A stretch of DNA of 30,267 nucleotides from a virus, in UHGV virus genome UHGV-0229465, one strand, 5' to 3'. Below are positions 270-5,482 of this stretch, one piece after another. The notes beneath the pieces were generated by a model that saw nothing but the letters and a program-made list of their open reading frames with translations, was not told the DNA's origin and did not search any database. A program made the translations under genes and the position numbers. Positions within the stretch are counted from its first letter, which is position 1, and each line of letters begins with the position of its first letter.

Positions 270-1022
270 ATGAACCTTGAAGCCTTACCAAAATATTACT
301 CCCCAAAATCTCCAAAATTGAGCGATGACGCACCGGCGACAGGCTCTGGTGGTTTAACAATTACGGATGTAATGGCTGCGCAGGGGATGGTGCAGTCGAA
401 AGCACCGCTTGGGTTTGCCTTATTCCTGGCAAAAGTTGGTGTTCAGGATCCTCAGTTTGCGATTGAAGGTCTGCTCAATTACGCGATGGCACTGGATAAC
501 CCGACATTGAACAAATTGAGTGAAGAAACCCGGCTACAGATCATTCCTTACCTTGTGAATTTTGCCTTTGCTGATTATTCCAGGTCTGCGGCAAGTAAGG
601 CTCGCTGTGAGCATTGTGCTGGTACTGGATTTCATGATGTATTGCGCGAGGTGGTGAAACACTCCAGAAGCGGGGAATCTGTTATCAAGGAAGAGTGGGG
701 GAAGGAACTATGTCAGCATTGTCATGGTAAGGGAGAAGTCAGCACAGCGTGCAGAGGGTGTAAGGGTAAAGGTATTGTCCTGGATGAAAAAAGAACCCGG
801 CTTCATGGCACGCCTGTTTATAAGATTTGTGGGCGTTGCAATGGAAACCGGTTTAGCCGTTTACCAACCACACTGGCGCGGAATCATGTCCAGAAGCTGG
901 TAGCGGACCTGACTGATTATCAGTGGTACAAAGGATATGCAAATGTCATTGATAAACTGGTGACAAAGTGCTGGCAGGAGGAATCTTACGCTGAAGCACA
1001 ATTGAGAAAGGTGACGAGATAA
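270..1022 (+). CDS. Q: Late-gene antitermination protein Q (phage 21 / 933W type)
   Basis: ATG at 270 with GGAG 8 nt upstream; translation MNLEALPKYYSPKSPKLSDDAPATG... with CxxC...CxxC zinc motifs closely matches recalled Q21-family sequence; positioned just upstream of late promoter and lysis genes. Confidence 0.85.
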   Translation: MNLEALPKYYSPKSPKLSDDAPATGSGGLTITDVMAAQGMVQSKAPLGFALFLAKVGVQDPQFAIEGLLNYAMALDNPTLNKLSEETRLQIIPYLVNFAFADYSRSAASKARCEHCAGTGFHDVLREVVKHSRSGESVIKEEWGKELCQHCHGKGEVSTACRGCKGKGIVLDEKRTRLHGTPVYKICGRCNGNRFSRLPTTLARNHVQKLVADLTDYQWYKGYANVIDKLVTKCWQEESYAEAQLRKVTR

Positions 1023-1053
1023 GTAATTTTCGCCGAAGATGGCGACATGATGC

Positions 1054-1082
1054 TTGCATTTTTCAAAAAATATGGTTAGGAT
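1054..1082 (+). promoter_or_regulatory. Candidate late promoter (pR' analogue): -35 TTGCAT 1054-1059, 17-bp spacer, -10 TAGGAT 1077-1082
   Basis: Sigma70-like hexamers with correct spacing directly downstream of Q; expected Q-utilisation region. Not verified. Confidence 0.35.
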
Positions 1083-1128
1083 TTCCCTAACGATGGGCTT
1101 TGTGTGTCTACCGTTGATAATCTTCAAG

Positions 1129-1152
1129 AAACCGCCACCGAGCGGTTTTTTA
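1129..1152 (+). terminator. Intrinsic terminator (tR' analogue) downstream of candidate late promoter
   Basis: Hairpin aaccgc/gcggtt followed by a T-run (1148-1151). Confidence 0.5.
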
Positions 1153-1310
1153 TTGATGTCAATTGTGTTTTTAAGGCTCTCCTTCCTTAAAGTGTGTTGT
1201 ACAAAAAACTGGCAGCCAGCTACGCTCATTTTGAAAAAGTGACACCCTTCAATGTTTCTTTTGAATGGAATTGCTACCCATAAATCTCTATCAAAAACAG
1301 GAGAGCATAT

Positions 1311-1553
1311 ATGGTGGAGCGTTGTTCTGTTTGTGAGCAGTCATTAAGTTATTCACGAGAAGTTGAACAAGATGGCGTTGAATATAAATCTTGCCCAAAA
1401 TGTTCTGCTGATGCCGGAGTGCACGTTTTTTATAAAACAATAGACTTTGGTTATAGGGATATGGGAGACGGCAGACATATCGTTCAGTCATGGTGTCCGG
1501 CTTGCCGTTCTGGTGAAAAACCTTCTATACCACCAGCATTTAAATGTTGTTAA
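1311..1553 (+). CDS. Small zinc-ribbon-like protein, function unknown
   Basis: 80-aa ORF with AGGAG RBS; three CxxC pairs plus terminal CC; first ORF of the late operon. Confidence 0.6.
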   Translation: MVERCSVCEQSLSYSREVEQDGVEYKSCPKCSADAGVHVFYKTIDFGYRDMGDGRHIVQSWCPACRSGEKPSIPPAFKCC

Positions 1554-1572
1554 CTCAATGAATTATAAAAAG

Positions 1573-1598
1573 AGGCTGCCTGTGGGCGGCCTTTTTTG
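1573..1598 (+). terminator. Putative intrinsic terminator/attenuator after the zinc-ribbon ORF
   Basis: Hairpin aggctgcc-tgtg-ggcggcct (one mismatch) followed by TTTTTT. Confidence 0.4.
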
Positions 1599-1684
1599 TG
1601 CACTACGCATCTTTTGCGACTCAACGCTATAACCAGCTTCTTCCCCTTCACTCGTTGCACTTCCGATAACCGGAGGTGGGAATT

Positions 1685-2506: not shown

Positions 2507-2970
2507 GCAGAGTAACCGCGATTATCTCCGCTCTGGTTATCTGCATCATCGTCTGCCTGTCATGGGCAGTTAATCATTACCGTGATAATGCAATCGCCTA
2601 CAAAGAACAGCGCGATAAAAAAGTCAGTGAGCTGAAGCAGGCGACTGCCACCATTACTGACATGCAGCAGCGTCAGCGTACTGCTGATGCACTCGATGCT
2701 AAATACACGAAGGAGTTAGCTGATGCGAAAGCTGAAAATGATGCTCTTCGGCGCAAGCTTGATGATGGTGGCAGGGTGCTCGTCAAAGGAAAATCCCCTG
2801 TGCCATCCTCAGCCGAAACCTCCAGCGCCTCCGGCATGGGCAATGATGCCACCGTCGAACTCTCTCCAAGTGCTGGACGAAACGTTCTCGGTATCCGGGA
2901 CGGAATTATCCGCGACCAAACAGCACTGAGAGCGCTTCAGGAATACATTAGGACGCAATGCCTTCGATGA
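2503..2970 (+). CDS. Rz: Rz i-spanin (inner-membrane spanin)
   Basis: N-terminal TM segment [31 protein letters not shown] matches recalled lambda Rz; start overlaps endolysin stop. Confidence 0.85.
2723..2929 (+). CDS. Rz1: Rz1 o-spanin lipoprotein, embedded in the +1 frame of Rz
   Basis: [19 protein letters not shown] lipobox and proline-rich PPAPPAW; lies entirely inside Rz as in lambda. Confidence 0.8.
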
Positions 2971-3110
2971 TAGCGATAATTTTACTCATCATCCTTCACA
3001 TCTGGCTCTGTAGACAGGGTGGTGCTCACTTCTGGAGTGAATCCAGATTAAATATCTCATTGCTGATGCTTGAAGTTGAGCATATGGCGCGCGGTAAGGG
3101 GCTGCGTTGA
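2967..3110 (+). CDS. Possible small hydrophobic peptide (47 aa), translationally coupled to Rz
   Basis: ATG overlaps the Rz stop (ATGA); N-terminal hydrophobic helix [14 protein letters not shown]. Below the ORF-track cutoff; weak evidence. Confidence 0.25.
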
Positions 3111-3145
3111 GATAAGATCCAGTTCATTACAAATACCAGGATTTA

Positions 3146-3170
3146 GCCTCGCATTCGCGGGGCTTTTTTA
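3146..3170 (+). terminator. Putative intrinsic terminator after the lysis cassette
   Basis: Hairpin gcctcgc-attc-gcggggc followed by TTTTTT. Confidence 0.45.
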
Positions 3171-3312
3171 TATCTGAATTCACAGCGCATCTCACGCGCA
3201 TATAAACGAGAGCCTTTCAGTAAGCGAGCCTGAGAAATGCCGTTATAGGTGGCGACCTCTCTCGGGCGGCTTTTCTGTGAGACAGGCTCACTTTCTAAAA
3301 GGTAAAGACGCT

Positions 3313-3810
3313 ATGAAAGCAATCACGCTTTTTAATACACCGATCCGTGTTGATGAATCAGGAATGATCTGCCTCACTGATATGTGGAAAGCCAGTGGTA
3401 AAAGTGAATCTGAATCTCCGTACCACTACCTGCGAAACAAGCAGACCAAAGAGTTCTTAGCCGAGCTGGAGAAAAACCACGAATCTGTGGTTTTTACTGA
3501 GCGCGGTGTACACGGTGGAACATATGGCGGGAAGTTTGTTGCTTACGATTATGCGGCTTGGTTAAACCCCGGGTTCAAGTACGCGGCCTATAAAGTCCTC
3601 GATGACTACTTCACCGGAGAGCTTCATCATCGGAACAGCTTAAGTGCGCAGCTCAACATGAAATGTCATGAGTTTGACCAGAAGAAAGACATGGCGAGCT
3701 TCTGCGGACAAGGGCTGGCGGCATGGCGCTATACGAAGCCAGTGTTGGTCGCTGAGATTAACTCCCTGGCTAACCAGCTGCAGATTACGATCCCCGGGCT
3801 TCCGGGATGA
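3313..3810 (+). CDS. KilA-N domain protein (antirepressor-like N-terminal DNA-binding domain)
   Basis: Start MKAITLFNTPIRV...; the ...AYDYAAWLNPGFKYAAYKVLDDYF segment resembles the KilA-N signature; start at 3313 chosen over the track start at 3277. Confidence 0.55.
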   Translation: MKAITLFNTPIRVDESGMICLTDMWKASGKSESESPYHYLRNKQTKEFLAELEKNHESVVFTERGVHGGTYGGKFVAYDYAAWLNPGFKYAAYKVLDDYFTGELHHRNSLSAQLNMKCHEFDQKKDMASFCGQGLAAWRYTKPVLVAEINSLANQLQITIPGLPG

Positions 3811-4226
3811 GTGATCGTGTCATTGAATGCGCCTCCAGAGTGGGGCGCGACTTCTCAGAGTTCATGAAAGGCGAGAAGGGCATGATGGAAGCATTGGCCT
3901 CGGTGGATGAGTTTGGCGAGCAGCTGCGTCTCAACGGCTGTGTCAATCATCACTTTGTTAGCTACATGATGCGGAACTCGATCATGCAGGCATTCATGGA
4001 CATGGCAAAAGCCGAGAGGAAAGAAGAGCGCCGGCGTAAGCGAGCGGAAGCAAAAGCGGACCAGCAGCGTACTGAAGAACATGCCGCAGCAACTGAAGCG
4101 GTTGCAGAACGCCGGGTAGAAACAACGAAAGAGGCCAGCAATGTACAGCAGAGTGTTAACCATATGCTTGGCGACGATGTTGATCGTGAGCTGCGCAACA
4201 ACTGGACCCGCCCCGGTAGTCGTTGA
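3807..4226 (+). CDS. Hypothetical protein, charged/helical, no TM segment
   Basis: ATG overlaps KilA-N stop (ATGA); 139 aa, Glu/Arg/Lys-rich C-terminal half; weak RBS. Confidence 0.4.
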   Translation: MSDRVIECASRVGRDFSEFMKGEKGMMEALASVDEFGEQLRLNGCVNHHFVSYMMRNSIMQAFMDMAKAERKEERRRKRAEAKADQQRTEEHAAATEAVAERRVETTKEASNVQQSVNHMLGDDVDRELRNNWTRPGSR

Positions 4227-4371
4227 TACCGCGTGCGATTGGGTTAAGCCTATCTATCTTACTGACCACGATATTTCCGCTATGGATAAACAGATGAAGC
4301 GCGACATCCTGACGCATAACAAAACATGGCAGTCGAACTGTTTGAAGGGAGAAACTGAAATGAAGCAGTAA
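4141..4371 (+). CDS. Predicted lipoprotein (lipobox LIVSC), function unknown
   Basis: AAAGAGG RBS 7 nt upstream of ATG; signal peptide MYSRVLTICLATMLIVSC, two further Cys; gene begins inside the 3' end of 3807-4226 in another frame. Confidence 0.6.
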   Translation: MYSRVLTICLATMLIVSCATTGPAPVVVDTACDWVKPIYLTDHDISAMDKQMKRDILTHNKTWQSNCLKGETEMKQ

Positions 4372-4652
4372 AGCGGACAGACCGCCCTTATAAGCCGCAG
4401 TCATGATGCTGCCCCGAGTCTCAATGAGAGCCAGATGCAGGTCCAAACTGCAATACGCGCTGGTGAGGGTTAACGAAGAAAAAGGCGTACCGGTACTCCA
4501 GAGCGATCGCCAGTCGCTCACCGGTTAGAGGTGAGGGATTCATGAGATACCCCTGACTACAGACTCAAGGGCATGAGCGCGGCCACTGCGAGAGTGTGGT
4601 TTATAACCGCTAAAAAATTTATACTCCATGGGCATTGAGCATGGAGGGTTGA

Positions 4653-5060
4653 ATGAAACTAAATATCGATTATTTAAAGTCGTTCTTAGCTTTATTTTTA
4701 GAATCTGAAAATCCATTTGTTTCGACAGATGAGTTGGCTAAAGCCGGTTACGATATTTCAGATGCTGTTGGATATTTTCACTACACCCAGCTAATTGAAA
4801 AAGGATTCGTGAGTACCTTGGATCTCAGGACGGGCAACCCAAAAGAGTTGGGATTAGTATTTTCTACAAATAGCATCACAAGCTGGTCTACTAACATCAG
4901 GCTAACTTCAAGCGGATATGATTTTGCATTGTCATTAAGTAAGCCGGATGTTTTTGAAAGATTGAAAGAGTTGAGCAATGAACCCATCGGGGTTTTGAAG
5001 GATGTTGGTGTTGAATTGCTTAAGTCTTATGCCAAGAAGAAGCTTGGTTTATCTGATTAG
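4653..5060 (+). CDS. Hypothetical protein encoded by an AT-rich moron
   Basis: 135-aa ORF with GGAGGG RBS, much lower GC than flanks, own terminator downstream; no family recognised. Confidence 0.6.
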   Translation: MKLNIDYLKSFLALFLESENPFVSTDELAKAGYDISDAVGYFHYTQLIEKGFVSTLDLRTGNPKELGLVFSTNSITSWSTNIRLTSSGYDFALSLSKPDVFERLKELSNEPIGVLKDVGVELLKSYAKKKLGLSD

Positions 5061-5088
5061 TATTACTTTCAAATAAAATGAAGTAGGA

Positions 5089-5119
5089 AGCCACAGGCAT
5101 GTGCCGGTGGCTTTTTTTT
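5089..5119 (+). terminator. Intrinsic terminator after the moron ORF
   Basis: Near-perfect hairpin agccacaggc/gccggtggct followed by TTTTTTTT. Confidence 0.65.
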
Positions 5120-5131
5120 ATTGGAGCAAAT

Positions 5132-5482
5132 ATGCCACCCCGGACACCTAAAGCTTGCCGTGTTCGCGGCTGCCGCTCTACAACAACAGACCCATCAGGT
5201 TACTGCGAGTCCCACAAAGGCGAAGGCTGGAAATCCTACAAATCGGGACAATCCCGGCATCAGCGCGGCTACGGTTCGAAGTGGGATGTTATCCGTGAAC
5301 GAGTGCTGAAGCGTGACAAAGGCCTGTGTCAGTTGTGTTTGCGTGCTGGTGTGGTGCGCGAGGCGAAAACCGTTGACCACATCATCCCTAAAGCGCATGG
5401 CGGCACTGATGCCGAAAGTAATCTGCAGAGCCTGTGCTGGCCGTGTCATAAGGCGAAGACGGCCCGTGAATGGTTGAAGTAA
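5132..5482 (+). CDS. HNH endonuclease, packaging-associated
   Basis: Zn-finger Cys pairs and ...VDHIIPKAHGGTDAESNLQSLCWPCHKAKT HNH motif; directly upstream of terS/terL as in HK97-like phages; GGAG RBS. Confidence 0.8.
   Translation: MPPRTPKACRVRGCRSTTTDPSGYCESHKGEGWKSYKSGQSRHQRGYGSKWDVIRERVLKRDKGLCQLCLRAGVVREAKTVDHIIPKAHGGTDAESNLQSLCWPCHKAKTAREWLK

Follow-up and report, generated by a model that had tools for sequence, protein, structure and literature searches.

A candidate moron-type gene cassette beside a conserved structured RNA at the lysis-to-packaging junction of a lambdoid/HK97-type viral genome

Introduction

The closest described counterparts of the locus reported here are the morons of lambdoid phages. 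The moron concept is that of Juhala and Hendrix, with bor and lom of phage lambda as its familiar examples, and the morons of HK97 and HK022 are annotated in the HK022 record. The DNA analysed in this work is a 30,267-nt stretch (hereafter the window) of the UHGV virus genome UHGV-0229465, which covers the late region of a lambdoid/HK97-type genome. Our subjects are a gene for a protein of 135 residues at 4653–5060 (+ strand; hereafter the cargo gene), the short cassette that it forms with its leader and terminator between the lysis and the packaging genes, and a conserved structured RNA element (4373–4599, + strand) that lies upstream of this cassette. Like the lambdoid morons, the cassette consists of a single extra gene between two conserved modules of the late operon at the lysis/packaging junction, deviates from its surroundings in composition, brings its own terminator and is absent from close relatives. 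Unlike those morons, it has no recognisable promoter, and its protein family, unrelated to those of bor, lom and cor, is met again at this junction in phages of very different kinds. This recurrence suggests that the junction position itself matters for the family.

The product of the cargo gene finds its nearest likeness in the DUF2513 (PF10711) and YjcQ (PF09639) proteins of phages and prophages, with which it shares the length class and the winged-helix topology. In contrast to DUF2513, however, the subfamily seen in the window adds a C-terminal tail (residues ~100–135), which surpasses the domain itself in conservation. For the leader of the gene, the relevant precedent comes from phage T4, where in gene e, I-TevI and gene 49 a hairpin masks the Shine-Dalgarno (SD) sequence on long transcripts that arrive from upstream, and a promoter firing inside the hairpin yields a shorter mRNA that can be translated. 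The cassette resembles this arrangement in that a -10-like hexamer, TATACT, runs into a leader hairpin, whose 5' arm starts with the last two bases of the hexamer. It differs in that its promoter and its two classes of transcript are only predicted, and in that the family-wide statistics for SD masking are modest.

For the RNA element, two families of antitermination signals invite comparison. The put RNAs of HK022 are cis-acting antiterminator RNAs of ~70 nt with two stems (PMC9378689). The element shares with them a structured nature, an orientation along the operon, and a place in the leaders of long phage operons that cross terminators; it is unlike them in being ~215–230 nt long with at least eight helices, in occurring as a single copy rather than as a putL/putR pair, in often preceding an N gene (HK022 has none) and in following a mini-ORF. 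Since HK022 contains no core of the element, and since putL and putR, when extracted, were not convincingly similar to it, put was rejected as its identity. With the N leader and nutL of lambda the element has in common its most frequent location, with the cI-side promoter on one side and an N-type gene on the other, whereas no boxA- or boxB-like motif was seen on reading its sequence, and it is found also after Q and after the lysis genes. The identification with nutL/nutR was rejected as well, given that a terminal hairpin on the opposite strand was present in 0 of 119 loci.

Results

A gene of foreign composition in a cargo slot

Several lines of evidence show that the ORF at 4653–5060, which begins with ATG, is a real gene under purifying selection. 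A word-indexed search retrieved 30 full-length homologs with 47–99% identity from Enterobacterales and Aeromonas, an exhaustive profile search put the family at 291 clusters at 50% identity, and dN/dS is 0.16 in comparison with the 87%-identical Enterobacter copy, at a synonymous divergence (pS) of 0.35. The base composition of the gene is foreign. Its GC content is 0.37, as opposed to 0.51 in the 2 kb upstream and 0.56 in the 2 kb downstream, bearing out the much lower GC that an earlier note on this DNA had ascribed to it. Likewise, GC at third codon positions (GC3) is 0.38, compared with 0.59–0.68 in the genes for the HNH endonuclease and the small and large terminases (TerS and TerL). Every homolog has a GC content of 0.35–0.40 whatever the GC of its host, even inside Aeromonas flanks of 0.57–0.59.

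At the DNA level, the 50,697 phage records and the 5,426 complete E. coli genomes that were searched contain matches to both flanks of the ORF but none to the ORF itself. When the upstream region was aligned with that of three other phages, homology was found to stop abruptly after ...GAGAGTGTGG (4599), and past this position each of the aligned phages carries a different cargo. This break, which comes right after the RNA element, marks the left border of a cargo slot. On the right, the terminator-to-HNH junction is common to the window and to E. coli PSS-11, whose slot is filled by phrog_25580. Because homology breaks after 4599 and the terminator-to-HNH junction is shared, the cassette proper extends over ~4602–5087, bounded by two conserved junctions.

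The content of the slot varies together with its terminator. RM9088 carries no cargo, and only the 3' half of the terminator hairpin is left in it, with a broken T-run; a7 carries a cargo on the reverse strand and the terminator is absent; in E. coli PSS-11 and in Enterobacter, a homologous terminator stands after a different cargo gene and after a homolog of the ORF, respectively. A working terminator, then, accompanies forward-pointing cargo. The comparison of related prophages at this junction, which the earlier note had recommended, has accordingly turned up relatives of the flanks that either lack the gene (RM9088) or carry other cargo (PSS-11, a7). This absence from flank relatives, together with the low GC, supports the note's picture of a single gene of foreign composition inserted at the lysis-to-packaging junction.

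The slot is closed by an intrinsic terminator at 5088–5119 (+ strand), with the stem GCCAC...GTGGC at 5090–5111 and a run of eight T residues at 5112–5119. With a folding energy of -16.9 to -20.5 kcal/mol (z=-3.5) it is indeed the strong terminator that had been read behind the ORF, and it ends 12 nt before the start codon region of the HNH gene. A consensus terminator scanner overlooked it because of an internal mismatch in the stem. Among ten distinct homolog loci, a strong terminator follows the stop codon within 30 nt in seven, several of these terminators being unrelated in sequence; that of the E. coli locus L014 is a weakened one. A sub-threshold match to the Rfam SAM/SAH riboswitch was also recorded over the terminator (5085–5128, + strand; 24.6 bits against a gathering score of 40 bits, E=0.0065), which is almost certainly a chance likeness of a GC-rich hairpin followed by a U-run.

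A probable leader hairpin that contains the Shine-Dalgarno sequence

The leader of the cargo gene contains the inverted repeat CTCCATG-N9-CATGGAG (4624–4646, + strand), with arms at 4624–4630 and 4640–4646 and a 9-nt loop. The earlier note had described it as overlapping the ribosome-binding site, and rightly so: the 3' arm holds the GGAG of the SD sequence (GGAGGG, 4643–4648). The window has 43 perfect 7-bp inverted repeats with loops of 3–12 nt, compared with 21.7 ± 6 in block shuffles, and the chance of finding such a repeat in a given 30-nt leader is ~0.02–0.04. Considered as RNA, the repeat folds with -12.4 kcal/mol (z=-2.6), and the pairing probability of the SD in the window leader is 0.82, as against 0.56 in shuffled leaders.

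The 5' arm belongs to a conserved run, AAAAATTTATACTCCATG (4613–4630, + strand), which also includes the -10-like hexamer TATACT (4620–4625). When the 53-nt leaders of the window and of the Enterobacter copy L007 are compared, none of the 31 positions in TTTATA, in the run AAAAATTTATACTCCATG and in the 3' arm differs, while 13 of the other 22 positions do, among them 5 of the 9 loop bases. This 31/22 partition was chosen after inspecting the data; the block pattern is still striking given the synonymous divergence of 0.35 in the ORF. TATACT shares its last two bases with the 5' arm and has no acceptable -35 element. From this arrangement, we infer that the run 4613–4630 is a candidate weak promoter whose start would lie just past the 5' arm.

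More distant homologs (L014, L016, L024 and L002) have leaders of unrelated sequence that form stable hairpins, again with the SD in the 3' arm (z from -3.0 to -4.0). Four G·U pairs are present in the stem of L014 and two in that of L016, for which reason these stems could function only as RNA, of the sense strand. A stricter test of SD masking was made by shuffling the leader alone, with 150 shuffles for each of 10 loci. The observed SD pairing was reached by 0 of 150 shuffles for L014, by 6 of 150 for L024, by 11 of 150 for L010 and by 19 of 150 for the window. The impression from minimum-free-energy (MFE) folds that SD occlusion is a strong signal throughout the family was weakened by this leader-only shuffling, and was given up.

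A distant DUF2513-like winged-helix protein with a conserved tail

The sole library match of the product is phrog_585, to which no function is assigned. Pfam and NCBIfam gave no match at normal thresholds, and the PADLOC-DB v2 defence models gave none at E≤1; identity with a known defence protein was rejected on the latter ground. Weak but consistent matches to the DUF2513 profile (PF10711) were obtained for 23 of 27 family members over residues 2–110, the best E being 5.8e-5. With 13 bits (E=0.14), the window protein itself stays under the gathering cut-off of 29.6 bits, so curated DUF2513 membership was rejected. The product is nevertheless a distant relative of DUF2513, with a winged-helix fold over ~100 residues (1–100) and a conserved C-terminal helical tail (100–135). 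Some databases label its homologs DUF2513 already, and our literature search returned no paper naming DUF2513. The remote-homology search proposed in the earlier note yielded this distant relation; with terminase, portal, capsid and the like it found no homology, in sequence or in fold. A terminase or packaging role was rejected on the same evidence and on the presence of canonical TerS and TerL in the window.

The winged-helix domain is acidic in 25 of 25 homologs (pI 4.3–6.1; net charge -1 to -11), and its helix 3 is mostly hydrophobic. Across the family, R83 (in the wing) and H43 (in helix 3) do not vary. The best-conserved part of the product is the C-terminal tail (VFERLK..S.QP.SVLKDVGVELLKSYAKKKFGLSD), in which non-synonymous divergence is 0.11–0.17, compared with 0.40 in the domain; the tail is most likely a dimerisation or partner-binding surface. 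The acidity of the domain, and the fact that the tail rather than the domain is conserved best, argue against the role of a classical DNA-binding repressor.

Two metagenomic relatives contain the module as part of a larger protein. In P0094 (L038, 355–1191), the full 135-residue module, with 36% identity including the tail, is fused to a TIR domain of the CAP12/Pycsar type (E=7.7e-21), and in P0150 it is fused to a domain with a weak match to DUF4062. Both architectures are defence-like. They are the only fusions of this kind among the 150 relatives listed, and the genomic context recovered for them, one 2-kb contig, is uninformative.

In every context recovered, the family gene is co-directional with the late operon, and in all of them but Pantoea it is placed between the lysis genes and the terminase module. 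These contexts include E. coli C691-71 (L005; GH19 lysin, P27 terminase), Enterobacter (L007–L009; GH108 lysin), E. coli (L014; lambda-type holin, Terminase_2), Citrobacter (L016–L018; Terminase_6 or Terminase_3), Aeromonas (L019; P22-type portal), Salmonella bongori (L021; GH19 lysin, P27 terminase) and Pectobacterium (L024 and L025). The copy of C691-71 (GCA_000818965.1) is 99% identical to that of the window. Although the types of lysis and terminase genes are unrelated, the family gene keeps to one place, behind the spanins and ahead of the terminase. The start codon lies 50–75 nt past the preceding lysis-module gene in L014–L025, and the Aeromonas copy ends 15 nt before a probable large terminase gene. 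The Pantoea copy is found at the prophage end, adjoining DUF2441 and Abi_2 genes. In the S. bongori prophage (L021–L023), the DUF2514 spanin gene just ahead of the ORF homolog has IS605-type TnpB (OrfB) genes inserted within it and next to it, and the holin gene has a pertussis-toxin-S1-like (ArtA-type) gene on its upstream side. The ORF copy of this prophage is without terminator and without leader hairpin, and has a perfect extended -10 (TGATATAAT).

A conserved, covarying RNA element upstream of the slot

The stretch 4360–4599, which contains an RNA element that the earlier note on the cassette had not described, is conserved and is not a gene remnant. It opens with a start-stop mini-ORF, ATG AAG CAG TAA (MKQ*; 4360–4371, + strand), preceded by an SD-like GGGAGA (4347–4352). 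This mini-ORF doubles as the in-frame end of the Rz1-like ORF 4141–4371, and its stop precedes by 1 nt the first helix of the element, which ends in the invariant block GGCATGAGCGCGGCCACTGCGAGAGTGTGG (4570–4599). The element is present in 91 of 5,426 complete E. coli genomes, with 68–99% identity; of the 40 E. coli records listed, nearly all leave it without annotation. Further copies occur in 15 phage records, in at least 120 IMG/VR contigs and in 34 species-representative genomes, nearly all of them Enterobacterales and many of them Xenorhabdus.

The fold is supported by covariation. From 12 diverse copies, RNAalifold derived 43 pairs, of which 19 are kept through changes on both sides. Standard pairs are formed in 97.1% of the alignment cells, compared with 86.1% when partners were shuffled (0 of 500 shuffles as high) and with 27–47% when partners were slid by 1–3 columns. 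The number of pairs with two-sided changes, 19, likewise compares with 9.2 for shuffled partners (0 of 500) and with 2–7 for slid ones. When 58 de-replicated copies were compared, four or five kinds of pair and 15–27 double substitutions were seen at single positions of the helices. Measured between its first helix and the invariant block at its 3' end, the element spans 192–242 nt (median 211), and its whole length is ~215–230 nt. A mini-ORF, made of a start codon, 0–2 further codons and a stop, precedes the element in 107 of 111 copies, and in 104 of these 107 an SD-like motif stands upstream of it. The most frequent peptides are MKH, MVH, M and MKQ, and the most common distance from the stop to the first helix is 1 nt. 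For the element, Rfam 15 gave no match at E≤1 over 4000–5300 and nothing credible at E≤10 over 4340–4625, so that a known Rfam family was rejected as its identity; in the literature, its core sequence was found in no relevant paper.

The neighbours of the element were analysed at 119 distinct viral loci among the matches listed. It is always co-directional with the operon and has one copy per locus. Its commonest position is just downstream of pL, with cI upstream in 45 loci and N (25) or other early-left genes (19) downstream; both sides are as in a cI→N placement in 18 loci. In the leader of pR', Q is found upstream and a holin gene downstream in 8 loci. In the lysis-to-packaging slot, a spanin or lysin gene lies upstream in 16 loci, 8 of which have a terminase or HNH gene downstream. 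With the exception of phiKO2, no terminator occurs within 200 nt after the element, and a terminator-type riboswitch was rejected as its identity for this reason. The positions of the element suggest an action in cis on the complexes that transcribe or translate long operons.

A physical tie between the element and the ORF family was considered and rejected. Both occur together only in the window and the Enterobacter lineage, and the ORF stands downstream of the element in only 1 of 119 viral copies; because of this, the two are independent modules.

Two further arrangements were observed around the element. Phage mEp213 (L031, 1304–3061) has two N-type genes in its pL operon, at 1304–1636 and 2789–3061, and the element (2447–2681) lies directly upstream of the second, which suggests a captured module of leader RNA plus N. 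In Klebsiella phage RothC (L036, 2363–2841), an element located after Q is followed within ~85 nt by genes for tRNA-Ile and tRNA-Arg and then by a homing endonuclease gene, all upstream of the holin gene, so that varied cargo is again found behind the element.

Discussion

We propose, with moderate confidence, that 4602–5119 is a self-contained, mobile cassette of the moron type, located in a cargo-exchange slot of a lambdoid/HK97-like prophage and gated at the RNA level. As regards the moron reading given in the earlier note, its architecture, mobility, foreign composition and own terminator have held up, while its treatment of the palindrome as a possible operator has found no support. In the model proposed here, the palindrome would be a leader hairpin with the SD in its 3' arm, and expression would be set at the level of the RNA. 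Long read-through transcripts of the late operon would carry the whole hairpin and would therefore translate the gene poorly. Transcripts started from TATACT (4620–4625) would begin just past the 5' arm, could not mask the SD and would be translatable. The terminator would halt such short, unmodified transcripts before the HNH and terminase genes, while Q-modified late transcription would read through it. As for the protein, it most likely acts by binding protein or nucleic acid, as a factor that benefits the lysogen or takes part in phage conflict.

A number of observations weigh against this model. A consensus scan found no sigma-70 promoter in the window, and in a relaxed scan that included the extended -10, promoter-like matches across the family leaders were not above shuffles. 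Under leader-only shuffling, SD masking is individually significant in only 3–4 of 10 loci, and ordinary genes of the window, such as those for the capsid and TerS, reach similar SD pairing values. The location of the gene 50–75 nt behind the last spanin gene, in the same direction, in most loci fits co-transcription with the late operon equally well. Finally, PADLOC, Pfam and NCBIfam are silent on the function of the protein, and no isolated, studied phage has the family.

Some of these points would suit a passenger of the late operon that has no promoter of its own and is expressed only in the lytic cycle, by read-through from the lysis genes. The terminator would then be the junction insulator of the slot, and the protein would perform some late service, for instance in the timing of lysis, in the modulation of packaging, or in excluding competitors from the dying cell. 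We regard this as possible, if on the unlikely side. It would account for the lack of a promoter above chance and for the co-directional location close behind the spanins, and it agrees with the Aeromonas copy that stops 15 nt short of a probable large terminase and with the same terminator behind a different cargo gene in PSS-11. Yet close relatives of both flanks do without the gene, its product has no similarity to any lysis or packaging protein, and a leader hairpin that hides the SD would oppose expression from the very transcripts on which such a passenger depends. Moreover, a working terminator is present only with forward cargo, and distant homologs have unrelated replacements for it, a pattern that is hard to explain unless un-antiterminated transcripts must be stopped. 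The earlier note's suggestion for the palindrome, a DNA operator, now appears improbable; such an operator would overlap the promoter and start site and be bound by a dimer of the winged-helix product, in the manner of PadR/MarR-like autoregulation, or by some other repressor. The perfect retention of both arms in the Enterobacter copy while the loop drifts counts in favour of an operator, as do the invariant residues of the wing (R83) and of helix 3 (H43). However, all 25 homologs have an acidic winged-helix domain, whose helix 3 is largely hydrophobic, no common half-site was found upstream of the distant homologs although helix 3 is conserved, and the L014 and L016 stems depend on 2–4 G·U pairs, at which double-stranded DNA would be mismatched. 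In addition, the half-site centres of the palindrome are 16 bp apart, an awkward spacing for a winged-helix dimer. In view of the acidic winged-helix domain and of the G·U pairs in the unrelated distant hairpins, we consider the palindrome better supported as an RNA hairpin over the SD than as an operator, if not proven to be one.

The fusion proteins raise the idea of a counter-defence decoy, whereby the protein would be the effector-less sensor or oligomerisation module of a host TIR-type abortive-infection protein and would poison or titrate that protein through its C-terminal helices. The union in P0094 of the same module, tail included, with a CAP12/Pycsar-type TIR domain, the P0150 architecture with its weak DUF4062 match, and the tail being the most constrained part of the protein are all in line with this idea. 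It seems quite unlikely nonetheless, with only two such fusions among the 150 relatives listed, an uninformative 2-kb context and no PADLOC match. Counter-defence genes are also normally expressed early, which makes a position in the late operon unusual for one.

Returning to the RNA-gated cassette, the ORF is fairly ordinary if taken alone, being one more selected cargo family at a lysis/packaging hotspot. RNA-level gating of its translation is a tractable hypothesis, and the link to the TIR module makes the gene a reasonable candidate for screens of phage-host conflict. The structured RNA is more surprising than the ORF, and the larger value lies in this neighbour, which is abundant, strongly covarying and without an Rfam match, and which sits where lambdoid phages control the processivity of transcription. 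Should the element indeed modify the complexes of transcription or of translation, a textbook phage group would be shown to have a new regulatory device, and the action of the element would explain the exchange of different cargo genes at its 3' end. One could go on to picture the cargo slot as run by an undescribed class of phage RNA that acts in cis, for example by put-like antitermination or Rho protection, to pass the terminators of the cargo, with the DUF2513-like cassette as one interchangeable payload; we hold this to be rather doubtful.

Other features of the window

Upstream of the locus, the window contains a Q-type antiterminator gene (228–1022) and genes for a holin, a lysozyme and Rz/Rz1 (1676–2970), the Rz/Rz1 pair at 2503–2970 being intact. 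On the right flank, the first gene of the packaging module encodes an HNH endonuclease (5132–5482, + strand; PF01844 at 9.8e-17) and has 86–90% DNA identity to its counterparts in SfI, SfII, SfIV, SfV and ~1,000 E. coli prophages. It is followed by genes for a P27-type small terminase, the large terminase, the portal, the protease and the capsid.

On the left flank are remnants of a second, partial spanin pair (3807–4371, + strand), downstream of the intact one. In this pair, the ORF 3807–4226 is phrog_875 (no assigned function) fused to an Rz-like C-terminus, and 4141–4371 (+ strand) is the remnant of a gene for an Rz1-like lipoprotein, or o-spanin (phrog_1275 at 1.9e-32). The pair looks like the scar of an older module exchange. 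Further upstream, a terminator-like hairpin (3145–3164, + strand) precedes a KilA-N/ORF11CD3 gene of the antirepressor/Bro-like type (3277–3810, + strand), which has a weak match to PADLOC PDC-S22 (8.1e-9). Lying between lysis and packaging genes, the region 3145–3810 is a further accessory insertion. A second trough of low GC (0.39–0.43) extends over ~900–1650 (+ strand), from the Q-type gene to the holin gene, and holds a zinc-ribbon ORF at 1311–1553 (phrog_7682, no assigned function); this trough is a moron-like candidate within the leader of the late promoter.

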